A DNA stretch of 64,000 nt from assembly GCA_004022145.1 (NCBI GenBank), contig RCNU01000007.1; one strand, given 5' to 3'. The translations under genes and the position numbers were made by a program. Under the pieces are notes generated by a model that was not told the origin of the DNA, did no database searches, and was given only the letters and a program-made list of their open reading frames with translations. This DNA is from Paecilomyces variotii. Lineage: Eukaryota. This document shows, piece by piece, positions 28,365 through 43,501 of the stretch (positions are counted from its first letter, which is position 1; the number at the start of each line of letters is the position of its first letter).

Positions 28365-31300
28365 ATGCCTGCCATTGATATCAACAAAGACCTCTCCGCC
28401 CTCTTCATACAACAGGTCCAGGCTACCCCCGATGCCGTTGCACTGGAAGATGAGACAACCACTTATACATACGCTGAGCTAGACAAGGAGGTTAGTGAGC
28501 TAGCCGCTCGTCTCCGTCGTTACGGCGTCAGTCGAGACAGTCTAGTCGGTGTGCTTCTGCCGCGGAGTGCTCACTATGTGATTACCTGCCTCGCCGCACT
28601 CCGTGCTGGAGGCGCTTTTCTTGTACTGGAGCTTGCCTACCCTCCTGATCTCTTGGCCGATGTGGTCGAAGATGCAAACCCGGCTGTAGTGGTCACCTAT
28701 AGGGCTGAGGTCGGTAAGATCAAAGCCGGGGTGCCGGTCATCGTTCTCGATGAGCCGCCGGTAGAAGCCAATGGATATGCGAAGGAGCCGGCTCCCTTGC
28801 CTGCTGACGATGACTTGGACCGACTTGCCTTTGTGTCGTACTCGTCCGGTACGACTGGCAAGCCCAAAGGAATTGCAAACCCCCACCGGGCCCCAGTGCT
28901 CTCGTACAACCTCAGATTCGGAGTTCAAGACGTTCAACCCGGAGATCGCGTGGCCTGCAATGTGTTCTTCATCTGGGAAATCTTACGTCCACTTTTGCGA
29001 GGAGCTACGGTCGTCGCAGTGCCGGATGAAGTGAGCTATGATCCTGCCGCACTCGTCGAGCTTCTTGCTTCCAAGCATATCACCGAGACGCTTATGACAC
29101 CCACACTCCTGGCTACCGTCCTGTCTCGCCATCCAAATCTAGGAGATGAGCTTCCAGACTTACGCGTCTTGTGGTTCAACGGCGAGGTGGTCACAGCCGA
29201 TCTAGCCCGTCGATCTATCAAGGCCCTTCCAAAGACACGCCTGCTCAACTGTTACAGTGCTTGTGAGACCCATGAGATAGCTTGTGGAGATATTCGGGAT
29301 ATGCTCGACAATGAAGCCTCGTATTGTCCTGTTGGTCCGCCTTTGGACCCCAAGCATACTTATATTCTCGACGAGAGCGGCAACAGAGTGGAAGATGGCG
29401 TGAGTGGGGAGCTCTTCATCGGTGGTCCTTTACTAGCCCGGGGATACCTCAACCTTCCTGAAACTACTGCCAAGGCCTTTACACCCGATCCATTTGATAC
29501 CACACCAGGGGCCCGTATGTACAGAACTGGAGATGGAGCGAGACTGCTGCCCTCGGGCCTCCTTGAGATCACTGGTCGCGTTGGGGCTATGATCAAACTC
29601 CGTGGTTACTCTGTGGTGCCAGGAAAGGTCGAAAATGAGATTGTCAAGCATTTAGCTGTCAGCCGATGTGCAGTAGTTGCCCATGGTGAAGGTCTGGAAA
29701 AGCAATTGGTTGCGTATATTGTCCGCGAGAAGGATGGTGCTGGGGGCCGTCCCGCGGTAGAGATTGACGAGTCAGGACACAGTCCAGCTGCGCGTCGCGT
29801 TCTGTCACCATATCTTGCACATTACATGATCCCAGCTCTATGGGTTGAACTGGATGAGTTGCCTACTCATGATGTCTCTGGAAAGGTGGATCTCAAACGC
29901 CTTCCTCCACCACGCATCACTACCCCGGTCAATGGTAATGGCCAGAAGCACGATCCGATTGGCATTGATGACATTGCTGCAGCTTGGGCAGCGGTTCTCA
30001 AGACATCAAAAACTCTGCTGAAACCGACCGATAACTTCTTCGACGTGGGTGGACACTCTTTGTTGCTTGCGGATCTGTCTTCTAGGCTATCGAGAGATTT
30101 TGGCTTCCGCATTCCTATCCCTCGTCTCGCAGAGAATTCAACCATTGCTGGCCATCTGGAAACGGTGCGTGCTGTGAGGGATGGACACGCTGCAGCGGTG
30201 CAAGCAGACCTCCCTGCGGTACTACGTGCGGATTCTACTCTTGATGACGATATCAGACCATCCTCTGGTGTCACGATACGCTCAGTTAACAAAGCAAACA
30301 CGGTGCTTCTCACCGGTGTCACTGGATATTTGGGCGCTTTCCTACTCAACGACCTGCTGCAAAACACCTCTGCTCATATTGTATGCCTTGTGCGTTTTAA
30401 TGAACCTACAAATGACGACCAGCCTGGAGGAATTGCCAGGCTACGAAGAAACCTGCTTGACCTAGGGCTCTGGAGCGATGCGATCATGGAACGCGTCGAG
30501 ATCCTCCCAGGAAACTTGTCTCGACCCCGTTTCGGTCTCTCAACGGAAGCGTTCGAAGAGCTCGCTTCTCGCGTTGATGTCATCATCCACGCAGCTGCCA
30601 CAGTCAACCTTGTGTATCCATATGCTGCATTGCGTGGTGCGAACGTTGGTGGAACAAAAGAGATTCTCCGCTTGGCTTGCAAAGGCGACGCAACGGTGCA
30701 ATACGTGTCCACAAACGGTGTTCTGCCGCCGTCTGGGGAGAAAGGCTGGCCCGAAGATACCATATTGGACATTGAGGACGTCCCAACAAAGTTGCTCGAT
30801 GGCTATGGCCAGACCAAGTGGGTGGCGGAGCAGCTCGTCCTCGAGGCCGGCCGTCGCGGACTGCCGGTGAAGATACACCGAGCAGGAACCATTAGCGGCC
30901 ACAGTCTCACTGGTGCTGCCAATGCGTGGGATCTGCTCACGGCATTGATCGTAGAATCGATCCAAATTGGTCATGCTCCCGATGTGAAAGGCTGGCGTGC
31001 TGAGATGACACCGGTGGACTTTGTCAGCAAAGCCATCGTCCACCTTGCCGGCCAAACTCATGCAGAACAAACTATCTTTCACCTCGGTGATCCAGACCCT
31101 GTAGACACCCGATCGGTCTTCGAGGACCTTGCAGAGCTTGGCTACCCGACACAGAGGATCGGATGGGATGAATGGGTTGCACTCTGGACCGAGAAAAGAG
31201 GCTCTGTGAAGGGCGGCGACGGCGCATTTACCGTCGACATCCTTCGCAGCGGTATGCCGAGCGTTGAGTTTCTCCGGGGAATTGTTGTCCTCGACAATGC

Positions 31301-32195
31301 AGCGACCAGGCCTTTCCGTACGGTCGTTGAACGGCCCAAGGTGGACAAGGTCTTGCTCGAGACTTACACGCGCCACTGGTTTGCCAGAGGTTGGCTACCG
31401 CACCCTCCTTCACGTCAGCATGCCCTCGGAGGATCTGCAAAGCCCATCACCAGAGGTCCCTTAAGCGGACGTGTGGCAGTTATAACGGGCGCGTCTTCTG
31501 GCATTGGCGAGGCAGTTGCTGTGGCTTTGGCGAAAGAAGGATGCCACATAGCGCTCGCAGCTCGGCGATTGGACGCTCTCGAAGCTGTCAAGCGCCGGCT
31601 AGTGGTCCGCGAAGGTAAGGTCATCATCCGGAAAACAGACGTTACGGACAAGGCGCAGGTAGACGCCCTCATCCGTGCTGCGAACGACGAGCTTGGCCCT
31701 GTCGATATTCTCGTCTCCTGTGCTGGAGTCATGTACTTCACCATGATGGCCAACACGCAGACAGAGGAGTGGGAGCGTACTGTGGATGTCAACTGCAAGG
31801 GTCTCCTTCACTGTCTGGCTGCCACAGTGCCAGACATGATCTCGCGTAAGAGCGGCCACATCGTCGCCATCTCGTCCGACGCAGGACGTAAGGTCTTCCC
31901 CGGATTGGGCGTTTACTCGGCGAGCAAGTTCTTTGTTGAGGCAACGCTTCAATCACTGCGTCTCGAGACAGCGGGAACAGGCTTGCGTGTGACCAGTGTC
32001 CAGCCAGGCAACACGGCTACGGACCTGCTGGGAATGTCCACTGACGCTGAGGCTATCAAGAAATATGGCGAGCCGTCGGGTGCGAAGATCCTCGACCCAG
32101 AAGATGTTGCGAACTCGATCGTTTACGCGCTACGCCAACCCCCGCATGTTGCAGTCAACGAAGTCCTGATCGAACCCCGGGACGAGCCGATATAG
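28365..32195 (+). CDS. ATRR: NRPS-like A-T-R-R enzyme, glycine betaine reductase (ATRR) orthologue
   Basis: A domain (YSSGTTGKPKG, YRTGD, GKVD; atypical NVFFIWE pocket), T domain (NFFDVGGHSLL), thioester reductase (TGVTGYLG, YGQTK), C-terminal classical SDR (TGASSGIG, YSASK). The architecture matches the characterised fungal ATRR. Confidence 0.92.
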   Translation: MPAIDINKDLSALFIQQVQATPDAVALEDETTTYTYAELDKEVSELAARLRRYGVSRDSLVGVLLPRSAHYVITCLAALRAGGAFLVLELAYPPDLLADVVEDANPAVVVTYRAEVGKIKAGVPVIVLDEPPVEANGYAKEPAPLPADDDLDRLAFVSYSSGTTGKPKGIANPHRAPVLSYNLRFGVQDVQPGDRVACNVFFIWEILRPLLRGATVVAVPDEVSYDPAALVELLASKHITETLMTPTLLATVLSRHPNLGDELPDLRVLWFNGEVVTADLARRSIKALPKTRLLNCYSACETHEIACGDIRDMLDNEASYCPVGPPLDPKHTYILDESGNRVEDGVSGELFIGGPLLARGYLNLPETTAKAFTPDPFDTTPGARMYRTGDGARLLPSGLLEITGRVGAMIKLRGYSVVPGKVENEIVKHLAVSRCAVVAHGEGLEKQLVAYIVREKDGAGGRPAVEIDESGHSPAARRVLSPYLAHYMIPALWVELDELPTHDVSGKVDLKRLPPPRITTPVNGNGQKHDPIGIDDIAAAWAAVLKTSKTLLKPTDNFFDVGGHSLLLADLSSRLSRDFGFRIPIPRLAENSTIAGHLETVRAVRDGHAAAVQADLPAVLRADSTLDDDIRPSSGVTIRSVNKANTVLLTGVTGYLGAFLLNDLLQNTSAHIVCLVRFNEPTNDDQPGGIARLRRNLLDLGLWSDAIMERVEILPGNLSRPRFGLSTEAFEELASRVDVIIHAAATVNLVYPYAALRGANVGGTKEILRLACKGDATVQYVSTNGVLPPSGEKGWPEDTILDIEDVPTKLLDGYGQTKWVAEQLVLEAGRRGLPVKIHRAGTISGHSLTGAANAWDLLTALIVESIQIGHAPDVKGWRAEMTPVDFVSKAIVHLAGQTHAEQTIFHLGDPDPVDTRSVFEDLAELGYPTQRIGWDEWVALWTEKRGSVKGGDGAFTVDILRSGMPSVEFLRGIVVLDNAATRPFRTVVERPKVDKVLLETYTRHWFARGWLPHPPSRQHALGGSAKPITRGPLSGRVAVITGASSGIGEAVAVALAKEGCHIALAARRLDALEAVKRRLVVREGKVIIRKTDVTDKAQVDALIRAANDELGPVDILVSCAGVMYFTMMANTQTEEWERTVDVNCKGLLHCLAATVPDMISRKSGHIVAISSDAGRKVFPGLGVYSASKFFVEATLQSLRLETAGTGLRVTSVQPGNTATDLLGMSTDAEAIKKYGEPSGAKILDPEDVANSIVYALRQPPHVAVNEVLIEPRDEPI

Positions 32196-34309: not shown

Positions 34310-36140
<1,831 letters not shown>

Positions 36141-36537
36141 ACGTGATGGCTATGATTTGCCGCGAGTAGCTTAATGTGCTTACTCTTTTGCGTCGGTCAC
36201 TTCCCTGTGATAGGAGCAGGATTCTGATGACTGAGGGAATGACATGATATGGATATAGAGAGCATTAGTAATACGCACCGAGAACATCAAAGCGGAGCAT
36301 GGGAGACGCCCATTAATCTGATTTAATTACTACGAATACGAGGCTATTCCGAACCAAGCACATGTGCTTTCCAAATAATAACCAGTCAACTATATGAAGT
36401 TCTATCATCGTAGTCGAACGGCTATTGTAGCGCCACATAACAGTGTTGATTAATATAAGTTCTTGCTAAAGAAGTATTATAATAATAATGTCCAGATCGT
36501 CAAATCGTAACGTGGTCATGAAGAACCTTGGTGAACA

Positions 36538-38130
36538 TCAAATAGTGCCCACAGTTGCCAATTTCTGCTCCCACCAGTCTTTCCACTTTACAACCTTCTC
36601 TTCCCGCCTGGCCTCTTCAGCAGCGAATACTACTGCGTGACTGCGGACGGCTTCTTCTAAGCTACAGCCGACAAATTTCATCTGGGCTTCAGAAACTTCC
36701 ATTCCGCCATTTTCAACAGCATCCACAGCTGCCACGAACGCCCGCGTCAGACCGTAGTCTCCGCCTCCATGTGCCTTCTCCTCCTCAGGCGGTTGGCGCG
36801 GGACTTCGATCACCGTGGTCGAGCGCGTGGCGAAGCTGTATATGGTGATTGTGCGGCTGTCGTAAGATACTTCACCGTGAGTGCCGTAGACACGGCCACG
36901 ACGCTCACATTGCTTCTCCGTCGGAGCGATCATATGGAAGCTTGCAGTCTTTGATGGGCGCTTATGTACTGTGTCGTCGTCCCAGGAGATGGTAACTACC
37001 TGGTCATCGCAAACATTATTGTCCGCTTCATATACACAGCGGCCATACCAGGTCCGGGAGGCTATGCTTTCGTCAGACATTTTGGCTCGGTCATAATCCT
37101 GGCGGAGATGGCTGAGGAGCAGATCCTCCGCTGCCGCAGCGCCGGACGTGGTCAGCGTGTCTTCAATGTCTGGACACACAATGCTGACCGGCCAATCGGT
37201 ATGCCCTTTGGCCAGGTGCATATCGCGGTAGATCTTGAGAGCACTGTAGTTGCAAACCCGCTCAGCAGGACACGAGAGACAGTTCGTCGCCGTCCCTGCA
37301 GCAGCGGGCTTCCGCTGGGGACGGAACTGCGTCAAAGCGCCCATAGAAGAGATGGATCGAGGTTCATGAGGAGGATGGTTCACCGCTGAGCCCGGTGGGG
37401 GCGAACACAGAAGCCATAGAATGAAGTCAATATCGTGACATGACTTTGTAAGAAGGGAACCATCCCCGTTGGGTGTTCCGCGGCGCCAATTACCACGCAC
37501 GTAACTATGAGAGAAATGCCACCAGCCGACAGGTTCGCAGTGCTCGAGAGAGACAACATCTCCGATGACTTTATCCGTCAGGATGATATCTCTAAGAAGT
37601 ATGTTGTGCGGGCTATACCGCAAAACATGTCCAATGGAGAAGATCTTCGACGGCGAACCAGTGCGAAGGGCATTGTAGATGGACAGACAATCATCAAGCG
37701 ATGTTGCCAGAGGCTTCTCAGAGAGGATATGTAGATTCAGAGGCGCAATAGCCTCTAATATCTCAACATGCATCTCATCGAGCGTGCATACGAAAACCCC
37801 ATCGATGCCTTCTGGGACATCTTGCCCAGCAGCTTTTTTCTGTCTTCTTTCGGTCTCCCATCTCAGCCAGTCCTTCCAATCAGCGAATTCTTGGCCCTCT
37901 GAGGCCTCGCCTCCAGATCCCCAGATATAGTTCTTCCCGAACTCCCGCCGCTTGAATGCATGTGGTTCAGCAACGGCGTGGATGACGCCCCGCGTCGCGA
38001 CGGTCACAGCTCGACCGTATGCATTTCCACGAGATCCAGCACCGATGACAAGAAATCGAAGCTTCTTCATCCCTGAGGAAGCTGGAACGGCATCGTTGGA
38101 TCCGGAGGCGCCGTCGGTTGGAACAGCCAT
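36538..38130 (-). CDS. Gfo/Idh/MocA-family NAD(P)-dependent oxidoreductase (StrI-like), intronless
   Basis: Rossmann VIGAGSRG, EKPLA, GHVLRYSP, HFSHSYVRGNWR, KSCHDID, HGGGDYGL; CLSCPAERVC cysteine motif. Confidence 0.9.
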   Translation of the reverse strand: MAVPTDGASGSNDAVPASSGMKKLRFLVIGAGSRGNAYGRAVTVATRGVIHAVAEPHAFKRREFGKNYIWGSGGEASEGQEFADWKDWLRWETERRQKKAAGQDVPEGIDGVFVCTLDEMHVEILEAIAPLNLHILSEKPLATSLDDCLSIYNALRTGSPSKIFSIGHVLRYSPHNILLRDIILTDKVIGDVVSLEHCEPVGWWHFSHSYVRGNWRRGTPNGDGSLLTKSCHDIDFILWLLCSPPPGSAVNHPPHEPRSISSMGALTQFRPQRKPAAAGTATNCLSCPAERVCNYSALKIYRDMHLAKGHTDWPVSIVCPDIEDTLTTSGAAAAEDLLLSHLRQDYDRAKMSDESIASRTWYGRCVYEADNNVCDDQVVTISWDDDTVHKRPSKTASFHMIAPTEKQCERRGRVYGTHGEVSYDSRTITIYSFATRSTTVIEVPRQPPEEEKAHGGGDYGLTRAFVAAVDAVENGGMEVSEAQMKFVGCSLEEAVRSHAVVFAAEEARREEKVVKWKDWWEQKLATVGTI

Positions 38131-38360
38131 GGCTTCTTACAATCTGTCCACTTCTGTCGTATCCAGTTAGGCCTAGAATGTTAGCAGGAGGAAGAAGAAG
38201 AGGGAAGAAAGCATGGATTTGAATGATCTTGGGTTTGATACTCGCTGCGATGCGATCAGTATTCCCCACGTTGTAATGTCGGCTCAGTGATTGGGTTGTT
38301 AAGTATCTCCGCTGCGGAACCACCTTGGTCCTTACTTATCTTCCCCGCCTTCTCTCGTCC

Positions 38361-38375
38361 AAGTACCTTGACAGA
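38361..38375 (-). promoter_or_regulatory. Candidate ZafA zinc-response motif upstream of the Gfo/Idh/MocA gene
   Basis: TCTGTCAAGGTACTT on the minus strand is a 15/15 match to the DYYVYCARGGTVYYY consensus (recalled from A. fumigatus literature), 231-245 bp upstream of the ATG. Confidence 0.55.
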
Positions 38376-38527
38376 TGCGAAGTCGTGGAGTATGAGCTCT
38401 TAACTACTTCTCTAACAGACGCTATCACAAGCATCCATAGCTCTCGATAAGACTACTTTGATTTCAAAAATATATTTCACATTCAGTTCACTGGTTCTAT
38501 CGTCCTTGATGTTACTCAACTCAAGGT

Positions 38528-40356
38528 CTACAACTCTCGCGTGAGATGATCCCTCGCCACAGGTTCTCTGGTATCAAACAGGCCTGCATATCTGTTTCCC
38601 AAGCCTGGAAAGGACATCAATGACGGTTCTTTTTCCTTGGACTCATCCTTATCTCCCAGGATCTCTTCCAACATCCATGCTATCCTCTCCGCGCCAAGTC
38701 TAGCTCCTTCGAGATTCGCCGCCCCAGGTCCGAGCTGGAGTGCTGCTAGACGACCGGTAACGAAAAGAGGAACGCCATGTTTCCACATAAGATCATCAGT
38801 AATGCAAGGCAGACCCTGTCGGATGTCTATTGGATAATCTCGGTTCATGTTCTGCAGACATGGAAGCGAGCTGACATCGGATTTTGCGCCTGTGGCGAAA
38901 TAGATATAGTCTATGCGGGGGAGGTCAGGAATCGGAGGATCCGTGGTGAGTGTCCATGTCTTTGACGATGGGTCGAATTCCTTGGAGACGATAACCGTGT
39001 GCGTGTGGATGGAGAGTCTTCCGCGAGCGACATGCTGTTTTAATATTTTGTAATATCGGGGCGTGATGCTGCCACCATTGCGTGCCTTCTGGATCATTTG
39101 GAGTCTTTCTTCTTCATCGTCGGCGGTCCAGAAAACTGCCTTTTCAAAGTTTCTGAACTTTCCCATCCACGGCAGGTCAATGTCGAAGTGTTTGACTGCT
39201 CCAAGAGTCAAAATTGTTTTCAGACCATATCCTCAACCGGGTATGAGCCTTACCTTTCAGTTCTCCTCGCAGGAAAAACCATACTTTGGTGATCCCTTTT
39301 CTTATAGCCATGTCCACTACCTGCGCAGACGAGAGTCCACCTCCCACAACTACCACGTTCGTTTCCTGGTGATTCTTGATCCGAGCTTTCACATTAGGAC
39401 TCGGGAAAGTCTTGATATCGAGACTATGACAGGCTCCCATCTCCTCCGTACTTGAGAGCTGCCAGGGGAATATTTTAGGACCTCCAGGTCCAATAGCCAG
39501 CACCACAGTGCGGCTATAAAATCTCCTGTCATCCTTTGTCGTGACGGTGAAGATCTTGTCGATTGACGAGTATTCGGGCACGATATCAAACTTGATATCC
39601 GCCACTTCTTGCTGTAATACCTGACCAGGGTTATCTAATCCATAGCGCGAAGCAACAGAAGAGCAATAGTCTTGGAAGAGTTTCGTGGATGGTGAGAAGT
39701 AATCTTTGCGATCACGCTCGTTGATCTCCACTTCACCGGTCGTTATTCTTCACGGTGTCAGACTTGCAGTATACTCGGCGCAAGGAAGGAGTTAACACAT
39801 ACCTTGCCTTGGTCCTCTTCTTCTTTTTATGCTTGCTCATCTCCTGTCCAACACATCCAGGAATCTCCCAGAGTTCCTTCTCCCTGCCATTTTCCATGGT
39901 GAAGGCGAGCATGCCGTCTCGGTCTCCCGGATCGACATGGAAGAACATAGGACTTCGAAGCTGCTCTATCTCCAGCGTTCGGAAAGACCTGTTCCAACGT
40001 TCCATCCAGCGATCTCCAGACCCATCCAGCACGAGTGTCGAATACTTCGATGACGGTGGTTCCGGCTGCGATTGACAACCTTTTCGACCACAGCAACTGC
40101 TCCCTCTGGAACCGGTATACTTCTCTGCCTTGACGCCGTTCATCTTCTTGTTATGCGCCCGAACGAGTGCCATATGGCCGCTGTGCCGCTTGATCCAATG
40201 ATATCGTTGATGTTCCTCGTCCGTAAATATCGCAGAGGGCGTCTCCTCCTGCAGACGCGCCGCAACAGCCAGACCGCATGGTCCGGCACCGACAATCAAC
40301 ACATCAAGGACGTCAGGAAGATCAGGACTAAAGGACCCGTTCTGTGCCGTCGTCAT
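38528..40356 (-). CDS. FAD/NAD(P)-binding oxidoreductase (Lys/Orn N-monooxygenase-like fold), 3 exons
   Basis: FAD motif LIVGAGPCG, LRSPMFFHVDP, NAD(P) motif VVVGGGLSSAQ, YFATG, LGPGAANLEGAR. The three ORFs join in frame via GT-AG introns with donors near 39802 and 39253. Confidence 0.85.
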
Positions 40357-40582
40357 TTTAACTGTATCGTGCAGTCCTTTCGAATCTATATCGGATCGGT
40401 CCGGGACCCTCGCGTGATGGCTCTTTCGAAGAAAAACCGCAAATAAAAAGAGAATCACAACCAATCTCCTCTGAAACAGATTCAATTCAACGAAACCATA
40501 ATCGATTAATATATCATATTACGTATTAAAGGGGTCTCTTAACCTGCCTGGCCCTAACTCCCCGGGTACTCGTACTCTCATA

Positions 40583-40634
40583 GTTCCCAAGGTCCCCATT
40601 AGTTAAGATCCCCAATCGGTCCATCAAGGTCCCA
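40583..40634 (+). promoter_or_regulatory. Two candidate ZafA zinc-response motifs upstream of the FAD oxidoreductase
   Basis: GTTCCCAAGGTCCCC (40583-40597, 15/15) and TCCATCAAGGTCCCA (40620-40634, 14/15) against DYYVYCARGGTVYYY. Confidence 0.6.
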
Positions 40635-41494
40635 GCTATGATATCTAATCGATCGATCTGGGAAATCGGAAGCTTACTTAGCGCAGGTCATATAACTAAC
40701 TATGGTAATATTCGATTGCTCAGAAATCACGATCTGATTCCAGTTAGCTCTGTGGATCTACTAGAGGGCGTTGTGAAGTGGTAGGAACTACCAAGTTACT
40801 TATCTGCCTACTAACTACCATTGCATGCTCTAGGGTTAACTCGAGTCCTGGAGCGATGACCAACTAAGTCCAGGTCAATCGTGTCCACTTCCAGTGTAGT
40901 AAGACTCGGGTATCACGTCCTGGGTTTTCGTAACATCCTGTCCTCATTCGCGGCAGTAGAGAGAGTGTATACGATGGTAGATGATGTGAGGTTTTTGCAT
41001 ATCGAAGAATAGATTACCTGAATACTTCGTGTGGGCGTAATTCAAAATGGAGTTTTGCTCTCTTTGGGTAATTTGAGGTATACACATTACGTGATAATGA
41101 CTGGCGTTAGCAGAAGCCGGCTTAATTCCGGCCAAGTCGTTCAGCTTTTCCGTAGCTCTTGGTGCACTGATTGGAAAAAAGACAACCAGTGTCATGGAGA
41201 AGAAATACATGCAAGAAAGCCCCCATATACATCTACATTACATATCAGACGTGATGAGTATATTGTTGAGAACAATATATCGAGAGGGCTTGCGGTGGAA
41301 CAGTGACCATGTTTATGAGATGTTAGACAGAGAAATTAAATATGTCCAAAACAGAGATGGTATATTGGGCATACTGTATTATTCTATGCATAATATTATG
41401 GACCTGAACTAACGGAAGACGAATACTATCTGGACAGAACTAGAAACCAGAAACATAAAACCTCTTCTGCATGATAGTCAAATATGTTCACAAT

Positions 41495-43501
41495 TCACTT
41501 GTGCCATTTCTTCGTCTTCCCTTCTGCCGTACTAGCTTTGGCACGAGCTGAACCTCCTTCACGACGATGCCAAGCATCTTGGGGCCAAACCCAGCCTCGA
41601 GAACGTTTTGCGTCGCGACGCTCTGAGAGCTGTGGCTCCGGAATCCATTTGTCTCTTCCTTCTGGCAGAACACGTTGACGGGTAAGTGCGCCGGGCCCGC
41701 CGACATTCAGATGGCCGGACGGTTGATCCGGCAATGGGACCGATTTCGAAAGCATGAGAAGAAAATATAGAGCCATGCTTGCGGTCATGGGGACGTTCAG
41801 GTTGTCTGGCTGCCCGTCGGGGTCGTTGCAATCCGGTGGAGACACGCTGCGTGAGGAGTCTGTGGTAGCGGGGGAGTGAAAAGGAGGATAATTGTCCACT
41901 GTGTTGCCAGAGACATTGTCGAAGCTGGCTGACGATGTCTTTGTCGCTATTGGAGTCGCCAGCTCTAGAAAACCGAAATAAGGCACGTCATCGCCCTCGT
42001 CGCAACCAGCACGGACACAGACAAGCTCAATTTCCGTCATGATGAAGCCATACCGGCAGGAATGTTCACGCATACAACGTTGAAGATGGGACAGTCCATT
42101 GAGGTACTCAACTCGCCGATGAGGCGCTTCGTTGCGCATTCCAGTGTTCCAGCGATCGAAGCTCTTGACGACTCCAACGACTCGACCGCGCGGAGAGCCA
42201 GAAGTCGTACGTTCGGTGTCCGAGGCGTAATTTGCGAGGAAATGGGGGCCGCCAGCTCTGTTTCCCGCACTGTTTGCATCTGGAGAGACATAAAGAGACA
42301 AATGGTCTGGACCTTGAGACACTGCCAATGCAGCATTAACACGCAGGGCATAGACATCCCGTAAGAGTTCCACGAGAGCTGTTTCAGACTCAGGAGACAG
42401 ACGTGAAGATGGAACGATAGCTGGAGGGGCAAGGTGTTCTGGGATTTCCGTCGTCAATAGCTTGGTGAGTCCGCTGATGCAGTTGATCGTCTCCAGTGAG
42501 AAAGACGACCAGCTACGGAGGTTCCGGATGTCCCACCAGAAGTAGCTCTGCAGACCGCGACTGGGGACAACACTCAAATTATGCACTAAATTAATGGCCT
42601 GTGTTGGGCCGGTAAGATAATCAAGAAGCGTGGTGGACGGTGCACGCTCCGCTGTAGGAATTACCCGGGCCAGCGATGTAATGGGTACGTTCAGAGCAGA
42701 ACCCATATAGTTCGCTTGCGCAGTAAGGGCAGTAGTAGTATTATACATGGGCTGCAGCTGAGCCAGGCCGTCCAGCGGCGGAGCTAAGCTGCTGGCAAGG
42801 GGTTGAGAATAGATTGGGTTGACAAGAAGGCCAGGAGTGGCCGGGGTAGTAGGCGTGACTTGTGACTGGGAGACATACTTCGGGAGCTGTCTATAGGTGG
42901 GATAACCGTAACGGCTTAGAGTTGCTTCATCGATACTCGAAGCAGAGCCGGAACGAGAATGTCCACCAGAGACCTTGCGTCTATGAGAAGGCGTCAAGGT
43001 TACTGGTGACCCAGCAAGAGAGGCACGACCAGCAGTGATTGTCGGAGTGGTCGATGCGGGTGACACGACCGCACAGTCCGCGGTAGAGGAGTCGATAAAG
43101 CTCACCCTTTGAATGGCAGGGCGGTTGGACGGATAAGGAACGAATCCAGGCGGGTTGCGCGTATTAGACAGAACTCGACGATGACGTTGAGGTCCACCAG
43201 CGGATGCAGGCTCAACGACGATGTCCTGTGGTCTGATCTTGGGCAGTAAAGCTGGGACATGTTGTCTAGCTGGTGATCTGCTTGGGGTAGTTGTGCCAGT
43301 GACCACAGACGCAGGAGAAGAGTCGTTGGAGTAGGCCGAGGAGCCAGAAGTGGCATGGCCAGTTTCACTCCAAGTAGGAATGGCTGCCGAAACTGGAGGT
43401 GTCATGGGTCTGGTATAGTAATAATCCGAATGCATGTAACCGTTAATGGTACCATCAGCGGGTGACGACGGCTCAAACGATCCAGCGTAAAAGCTCGACA
43501 T
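41495..43501 (-). CDS. Conserved hypothetical fungal protein: Ser/Pro/Thr-rich N-terminus and globular C-terminal domain
   Basis: 668-aa uninterrupted ORF. C-terminal block YFWWDIRNL...VVGVVKSFDRW...CMREHSCRYGFIMTEIELVCVR looks conserved and folded. Confidence 0.8.
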   Translation of the reverse strand: MSSFYAGSFEPSSPADGTINGYMHSDYYYTRPMTPPVSAAIPTWSETGHATSGSSAYSNDSSPASVVTGTTTPSRSPARQHVPALLPKIRPQDIVVEPASAGGPQRHRRVLSNTRNPPGFVPYPSNRPAIQRVSFIDSSTADCAVVSPASTTPTITAGRASLAGSPVTLTPSHRRKVSGGHSRSGSASSIDEATLSRYGYPTYRQLPKYVSQSQVTPTTPATPGLLVNPIYSQPLASSLAPPLDGLAQLQPMYNTTTALTAQANYMGSALNVPITSLARVIPTAERAPSTTLLDYLTGPTQAINLVHNLSVVPSRGLQSYFWWDIRNLRSWSSFSLETINCISGLTKLLTTEIPEHLAPPAIVPSSRLSPESETALVELLRDVYALRVNAALAVSQGPDHLSLYVSPDANSAGNRAGGPHFLANYASDTERTTSGSPRGRVVGVVKSFDRWNTGMRNEAPHRRVEYLNGLSHLQRCMREHSCRYGFIMTEIELVCVRAGCDEGDDVPYFGFLELATPIATKTSSASFDNVSGNTVDNYPPFHSPATTDSSRSVSPPDCNDPDGQPDNLNVPMTASMALYFLLMLSKSVPLPDQPSGHLNVGGPGALTRQRVLPEGRDKWIPEPQLSERRDAKRSRGWVWPQDAWHRREGGSARAKASTAEGKTKKWHK

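Follow-up and report, generated by a model that had tools for sequence, protein, structure and literature searches.

The subject of this analysis is a pair of neighbouring oxidoreductase genes of Paecilomyces variotii, located in a 64-kb stretch of contig RCNU01000007.1 (assembly GCA_004022145.1) that is referred to below as the window. One gene encodes a flavoprotein with predicted sites for flavin adenine dinucleotide (FAD) and reduced nicotinamide adenine dinucleotide phosphate (NADPH), and is called here the FAD gene; the other encodes a Gfo/Idh/MocA oxidoreductase, and is called the Gfo gene. An initial annotation, made from the sequence alone, noted a perfect match to the zinc-response (ZR) element of the fungal regulator ZafA upstream of each, and proposed that the two form one co-regulated pathway for zinc limitation. 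The evidence set out here makes it likely that the FAD gene is a true zinc-starvation target and the Gfo gene a bystander, a joint claim that concerns regulation and not substrate. What remains of the pair is then one known ZafA target and its neighbour.

Probable zinc control of the FAD gene

The FAD gene (38528-40356, minus strand) codes for a class B flavoprotein of 571 amino acids in three exons (40356-39803, 39747-39254 and 39195-38528). Both introns appear as joints in an RNA-type contig spanning 38444-40529, which also hints that the transcript ends, with a poly(A)-like run, near 38444, and so at a 3' untranslated region covering 38444-38527 (minus strand). The gene is single-copy in the P. 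variotii genome, and the FAD and Gfo proteins are each 99% identical to Paecilomyces variotii entries.

The case for zinc control comes mainly from orthologues. Homologues of the FAD protein include AN4921 of Aspergillus nidulans (57% identity) and XP_754551 of Aspergillus fumigatus (60%), and according to the supplement of Vicentefranqueira et al. (2018; PMC6070888) AFUA_3G10680 has AN4921 as its orthologue. The microarray tables of the same source list AFUA_3G10680 as up 16.6-fold in low zinc and down 53.6-fold in ΔzafA, sixth among the ZafA-induced genes and thus among those most strongly induced in A. fumigatus, with two ZR sites in its promoter and ZafA binding predicted. In the main text it appears once, in a table, without a function. 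Gene order also corresponds, AFUA_3G10680 being two genes from erg13, as is the FAD gene of the window. By its orthologue, then, the FAD gene counts as a target of ZafA, and expression in P. variotii would be expected to follow; this part of the initial annotation stands. The regulation is already published for the orthologue, and the P. variotii gene is an addition to the known ZafA regulon. The gene identifiers AFUA_3G10680 and AN4921 were found in this single paper (PMC6070888). The main text of a chromatin immunoprecipitation study of T. marneffei (PMC13733205) does not name the gene, and the supplements of PMC6940964, PMC10056003 and PMC3423376, the last two searched without the orthologues' identifiers, gave no usable fungal expression data.

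The consensus DYYVYCARGGTVYYY is the published ZafA ZR element (PMC6070888), as the annotation had stated. A scan of the window returned perfect matches at 40583-40597 (plus strand) and 38361-38375 (minus strand) and no others, with a 14/15 match at 40620-40634 (plus strand). These positions, and the adjacency and common orientation of the two genes, are as first annotated. The distances from site to ATG are indeed similar, 227-241 bp for the FAD gene and 231-245 bp for the Gfo gene, but the arrangement is not the same: the two perfect sites are oppositely oriented with respect to their own genes, that of the FAD gene being in reverse orientation.

The annotation's chance rate of 0.003 perfect matches per 500 bp at equal base frequencies was reproduced (0.0032), and the genome-wide rate is 0.0043 per 500 bp. 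Perfect sites number 261 in 30.1 Mb, against 225 for a reversed control pattern, and most perfect matches in the P. variotii genome are therefore background; with 0.0043 expected per 500 bp, a lone perfect match is weak evidence. Site strength was scored with a matrix tallied from 32 published ZR sites and applied to the 63 CARGGT cores in the window. The site at 40583-40597 comes top of the 63, reaches the 97.7th percentile of ZR0 words, and belongs to a set of 23 strong-type sites in the genome. The match at 38361-38375 is of middling strength (65th percentile of ZR0 words) and falls outside the strong-type set.

Conservation of the FAD-gene sites rests on three comparisons. A. fumigatus has two sites; a Penicillium-like contig (L001) has two perfect sites before its FAD gene and none before its Gfo gene; and in a relative less than 90% identical (X21) the segment 40564-40650 can be aligned while its flanks cannot. 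This island contains both the strong site and the 14/15 site, which lies at -278 from the ATG. Two further CAAGGT cores, listed in the annotation, were rejected. The one at 38522-38527 adjoins the FAD stop codon, in the 3' untranslated part of the transcript contig, and a 6-nt deletion in a strain 95-99% identical falls on the one at 38322-38327; both score among the lowest 0.5% of ZR words.

The genome appears to have a ZafA system of its own. A ZafA-like gene, recognised by its anatomy and without reference to A. fumigatus ZafA, encodes a Cys/His-rich protein with zinc fingers, and its promoter has two perfect sites. Perfect sites also precede three of the seven ZIP matches and an HRXXH (Aspf2-type) gene, and the 23 strong-type sites include three ZIP promoters, the Aspf2-type gene and the ZafA-like gene, as well as unrelated genes. 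Among the other strong-type sites, three are close to genes for an NRAMP transporter, a GFA-domain protein and uroporphyrinogen decarboxylase (L188 G000:C2:870576, L185 and L194), which are possibly further ZafA targets or possibly chance. The single CobW_C match in the genome has no ZR site in the scanned stretch, which probably falls short of its promoter.

Zinc response and linkage of the Gfo gene

The Gfo gene (36538-38130, minus strand) is a single exon encoding an oxidoreductase of 530 amino acids that would depend on NAD(P), nicotinamide adenine dinucleotide or its phosphate, and has a four-Cys motif. Its counterparts were collected in a metagenome scan, from which the best 80 of 541 matches were taken; 28 of these loci are fungal by identity, and 26 of the 28 had upstream DNA (L042 and L046 are near duplicates). 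A ZR site with at most one mismatch occurs in none of the 26 orthologous promoters; with up to two mismatches, four of the 26 have one, compared with a background of 24%. The Gfo match at 38361-38375 is probably a chance occurrence. With about 49 targets, two neighbours each and a rate of 0.0043, some 0.4 chance pairs are expected per genome, so that a single case needs no explanation.

The order oligoribonuclease, phosphoglucomutase (PGM), Gfo in the window corresponds to AFUA_3G11820, AFUA_3G11830 and AFUA_3G11840 of A. fumigatus, where AFUA_3G11840 is 116 gene numbers from AFUA_3G10680 (PMC6070888). In the tables of that paper AFUA_3G11840 is absent from S4, S5 and Table 3, which give the ΔzafA, ZafA-regulated and target genes. 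The proposed co-regulation of the Gfo gene is thus not supported. Of the outcomes that the annotation named as refuting it, two are seen for Gfo, the lack of the motif in orthologous promoters and the lack of a sign of ZafA dependence in the A. fumigatus tables; the other, no induction under zinc limitation, is not, the counterpart being induced in low zinc, as noted below.

Nor does the linkage of the pair, which the annotation had proposed to check, rise above background synteny. PGM or gene X, which lies beyond the FAD gene, is near Gfo in 15 of the 28 fungal loci and an FAD gene in one, with a sugar transporter between; for the 12 loci whose flanks reach 4 kb or more on each side, the figures are nine and one. 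In the window, the last coding stretch of PGM is at 35037-36140 (plus strand) and gene X, of 668 amino acids, at 41495-43501 (minus strand). One fungal locus (L002) has X, Gfo and PGM arranged as in P. variotii with the FAD gene absent, and the FAD gene was therefore probably inserted into an older PGM-Gfo-X block, which would have happened in a Eurotiales ancestor. Homologues of gene X are near Gfo in 10 of the 28 loci, often with PGM, in what looks like a long-kept block; searches of gene X against Pfam and NCBIfam gave no match.

Predicted fold of the FAD protein

The FAD protein has the motifs GxGxxG (residues 23-28), GGGL (320-323) and ATG (450-452). Its model (predicted local distance difference test score, pLDDT, 73.5) has the fold of a class B flavoprotein with two dinucleotide-binding motifs, of the type found in flavin-containing monooxygenases (FMO) and N-hydroxylating monooxygenases (NMO). 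Conserved across the family are the FAD and NADP motifs, an Arg that aligns with the Arg in the NADP domain of SidA, an FMO-type His, and DxxxxATG. These motifs and the predicted fold mark the FAD protein as a soluble class B flavoprotein with FAD and NADPH sites. The top fold matches are tied: a Stenotrophomonas FMO (Z 26.4), DesB (26.3), YpdA (26.1) and SidA (25.7, with a root-mean-square deviation, rmsd, of 3.7 over 400 aligned residues). In Foldseek SidA comes first (15% identity), while the PDB, searched by sequence, yielded nothing better than E 0.0015.

Database entries widely label the family L-ornithine N5-monooxygenase, which is probably a wrong, automatic over-call. P. variotii has a separate SidA, which scores 267.7 bits against 26.2 for exon 2 of the FAD gene, and the FAD gene was rejected as the SidA of the siderophore pathway. 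When the genome's own SidA is aligned with the FAD protein, the NADP-domain segment matches (83% probability, 90 columns) and the C-terminal part does not do so reliably.

The annotation also pointed to Cys clusters in both proteins, but a link between the two through these clusters is not supported. The Gfo cluster, CxxCxxExxC, is conserved (118 of 120 fungal homologues); that of the FAD protein, SCCGRKGC, is not, and it was rejected as a metal site: it lies in a variable insert with pLDDT below 50, and CC-x-C is present there in two of 120 homologues, both from Paecilomyces. CxxC is likewise not conserved in the FAD family (9 of 120), and no Cys is invariant across kingdoms.

The FAD family and its zinc links in bacteria

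A profile search gave 2435 FAD-family representatives at E ≤ 0.001, including yeasts, basidiomycetes, Basidiobolus and a fish; members are found in fungi, fish, bacteria and archaea. The teleost fish member (P0461) is 27.5% identical at E 1e-45, and a chordate cluster appears in the ESM Atlas. Among the hits listed for a low-zinc gene of C. elegans and for a zebrafish gene identifier, none was relevant.

Bacterial loci were taken as the best 80 of 405 genome matches, nearly all labelled cyanobacterial. A gene for COG0523, ZnuA, ZnuB, HemB, FolE or RpsN lies within 6 kb in 41 of the 80. A Zur-type palindrome is present within 300 bp upstream in 56 of the 77 cyanobacterial loci with enough DNA, as against 0 of 70 downstream, 0.1 in shuffled sequence and 39 of 462 other open reading frames. 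The consensus used is reportedly that of Napolitano et al. in 2012. The box can be read as zinc control because of the zinc-gene neighbours and the data for Synechococcus 7002, in which SYNPCC7002_G0132, part of the pAQ7 hemB-II/folE-II cluster, is derepressed when zur is mutated and is also induced by N,N,N',N'-tetrakis(2-pyridylmethyl)ethylenediamine (PMC4628125). The Synechococcus 7002 match to the FAD protein (28.5% identity, E 1e-28) was equated with G0132 by gene count. The link of the bacterial homologues to Zur and COG0523, which the annotation had brought up, is thus supported.

In the Bacillales, three of four FAD-family loci have a Bacillus Zur box (consensus from PMC2706843) with one or two mismatches, and the homologues that bear such boxes include one from S. 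aureus; the loci counted here are related, and are not independent events. Fifteen prokaryotic matches come from plasmid records. Of seven plasmid regions, four have genes for GTP-binding (COG0523-type) proteins, one has hemB and folE, and two have no zinc genes. On a haloarchaeal plasmid (L087:7863-12739), two FAD-family copies lie beside genes for a GTP-binding protein and ribosomal S14. It is worth adding that in Corynebacterium glutamicum the putative oxidoreductase Cg0795 is Zur-repressed and divergent from the COG0523 gene cg0794, and that its authors proposed a functional link to the chaperone (PMC2823685). For All4724, no match came up in the literature searched or in the supplements of PMC10957091.

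Signs of three zinc controls are seen in the family: cyanobacterial Zur, Bacillales Zur and fungal ZafA. That bacteria and fungi should share zinc-starvation control, convergently, suggests a conserved and as yet unexplained biochemical need. The family has no close solved structure and no described function was found; nor was any paper describing the FAD enzyme or connecting its fungal and bacterial relatives, in a search outside which most subscription journals lay.

Likely chemistry of the Gfo protein

The four-Cys motif of the Gfo protein (CxxCxxExxC plus YGRCV; 37252-37281 in the window, minus strand) is conserved from bacteria to fungi, a similar motif being present in 38 of 40 bacterial loci (L019-L079). 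It is probably a structural metal site, and if it binds zinc the enzyme would use zinc up and not spare it. The nearest structures to the model (pLDDT 66) are sugar and glycoside dehydrogenases, and from sequence and model the protein is a probable NAD(P)-dependent (amino)sugar dehydrogenase. The subfamily is possibly an uncharacterised metal-containing amino-sugar dehydrogenase, going by the motif and by the bacterial neighbours. Among the bacterial loci, with 68 of 105 extracted neighbours scanned, hexosaminidase-type neighbours are found in five of 37 and other sugar genes in nine more. COG0523, ZnuA, ZnuB, HemB, FolE and RpsN occur in none of the 40, and neither does an FAD-family gene.

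Proposed role and alternative explanations

In low zinc, ZafA would bind the two ZR sites at 40583-40634 and give rise to a stand-alone FAD transcript. The product is better explained by oxygenase chemistry than by pure reductase chemistry, on the whole: it would be an NADPH- and O2-dependent oxygenase acting through a C4a-hydroperoxyflavin on a small thiol or amine. As to its purpose, we tentatively place first the release of zinc from thiolate ligands or buffers for a COG0523 chaperone. This is favoured because the family recurs beside COG0523 genes, because no biosynthetic partners were seen in the regions around it, and because, in A. fumigatus, cysteine genes and mchC are induced along with AFUA_3G10680 (PMC6070888). 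A zinc-free back-up isozyme is a less likely purpose, and we would give less credence again to chelator synthesis, with an equal share for some other role. More broadly, the FAD family may be an ancient low-zinc family under three unrelated controls, serving as the redox partner of COG0523 metallochaperones in freeing thiolate zinc; we regard this as speculative.

Several observations tell against the Gfo gene being a bystander and against the zinc reading of the bacterial loci. The four highest-scoring of the 63 sites all fall within 36521-40634; one of them, a 14/15 match at 36521-36535 (minus strand), lies directly after the Gfo stop, where there is no promoter, and scores about as well as the Gfo promoter site. 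AFUA_3G11840 is up 3.1-fold in low zinc (Table S3 of PMC6070888), and it is probably the Gfo counterpart, identified by gene order and description and not by sequence. Of the 26 orthologous promoters three look Eurotialean, with none known from the family of Paecilomyces itself, and the contigs of X21 end before 38361-38375 and so say nothing either way. The FAD and Gfo genes are near each other in several Penicillium species, judged by locus tags; they are adjacent in a merged gene model of P. taxi, and lie at a distance of two loci in a further two species and in L001. In bacteria, the loci surveyed are mutually related, and the cyanobacterial box resembles a Fur box.

These observations bear on two alternatives. 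The Gfo gene might have gained a working ZR site in Paecilomyces and be ZafA-induced with its neighbour, by lineage-specific co-option and with no pathway in common. The site is a perfect match at a typical distance, with a 0.4% chance for one named 500-bp promoter, high-scoring sites do cluster locally, and AFUA_3G11840 is mildly induced in low zinc; but the site is single and of middling strength, while the sites of strong local targets are stronger and often several; the core beside it is lost to a deletion in a close strain, and about 0.4 such coincidences are expected per genome. Co-option is on balance unlikely. Far less probable is the original proposal, in which an FAD monooxygenase and a Gfo dehydrogenase catalyse two steps of one ZafA pathway for chelator synthesis or zinc-free back-up. 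It can draw on the adjacency retained in parts of the Eurotiales, on the likeness of the FAD fold to siderophore N-hydroxylases, and on the 1100-residue P. taxi model. That model was rejected as evidence for one pathway: two whole proteins stand end to end in it without a linker, which suggests that annotation has run separate genes together. In another Penicillium model the FAD gene is joined to a sugar transporter. In A. fumigatus the two genes are distant and differently regulated, 27 of 28 fungal Gfo loci (11 of 12 with the longer flanks) and all 40 bacterial ones have no FAD gene nearby, and the flanking genes scanned include no synthetase, acyltransferase or exporter.

A third alternative keeps the regulation and changes the chemistry: the FAD protein could be an NADPH-dependent reductase, flavin-linked or for low-molecular-weight disulfides and resembling YpdA/Bdr, acting against the thiol and oxidative stress that zinc starvation brings. 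YpdA, a bacillithiol disulfide reductase, does tie with the FMO and N-hydroxylases (Z 26.1, rmsd 3.1, 313 aligned residues, 23% identity), and genes for cysteine synthase and a cysteine transporter are co-induced by ZafA (PMC6070888). Against this, the N-hydroxylases come first in Foldseek, the FMO/NMO-type His and DxxxxATG are conserved, and the family has neither a conserved CxxC nor a Cys invariant across kingdoms; a reductase is the less likely reading.

With the FAD gene as the zinc-starvation target and the Gfo gene as a bystander, the interest shifts to the FAD family, which makes the role of COG0523-associated oxidoreductases testable in easy models (Synechococcus 7002 and A. nidulans). 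If true, the reading as a partner of COG0523 would supply a missing catalytic step of zinc recycling in all domains of life.

Other features of the window

Upstream of the FAD ZR sites, a low-depth RNA-type contig covers 40705-41215 (minus strand), with a spliced GT..AG intron of 58 nt (40734-40791). The region has no open reading frame of 100 amino acids, and the transcript could belong to a non-coding RNA upstream of the FAD gene, to an isoform with a long leader or to gene X as a 3' extension. At 28365-32195 (plus strand) lies a protein like a nonribosomal peptide synthetase, with adenylation, carrier, thioester reductase and short-chain reductase domains (A-T-R-R), which is presumably the layout of the glycine betaine reductase ATRR.

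Comparison with known systems

The closest known system is that of AFUA_3G10680 and AN4921, orthologues (57-60%) that likewise lie two genes from the gene for 3-hydroxy-3-methylglutaryl-coenzyme A synthase, with two ZR sites some 170-280 bp upstream. They differ in that AFUA_3G10680 is 116 gene numbers away from the Gfo counterpart, whereas the P. variotii genes are adjacent. SYNPCC7002_G0132 is a homologue that shares the motifs LRSP-x-x-x-H-x-x-P, GGGL, ARxGGS, ATG and GPxAxNxxG with the FAD protein and is, like the A. fumigatus orthologue, induced by zinc limitation; unlike that orthologue it is Zur-repressed and not ZafA-activated, and it is of about 420 amino acids, lacks the fungal inserts and is clustered with zinc genes. 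For Cg0795 the resemblance is one of regulatory and neighbourhood pattern.

SidA, PvdA and DesB (PF13434) have the same two-dinucleotide fold, NADPH-site Arg and His fingerprint as the FAD protein, but they are 14-16% identical to it and the substrate-binding parts do not align reliably; the FAD gene further differs from SidA in being zinc-regulated, with no siderophore genes nearby. For the Gfo protein, the top sequence and fold matches are YjhC/NanOx, glucuronide 3-dehydrogenase, levoglucosan dehydrogenase and SqgA. Identity to these dehydrogenases is 12-16%, and the four-Cys motif of the Gfo protein marks it as a separate subfamily.

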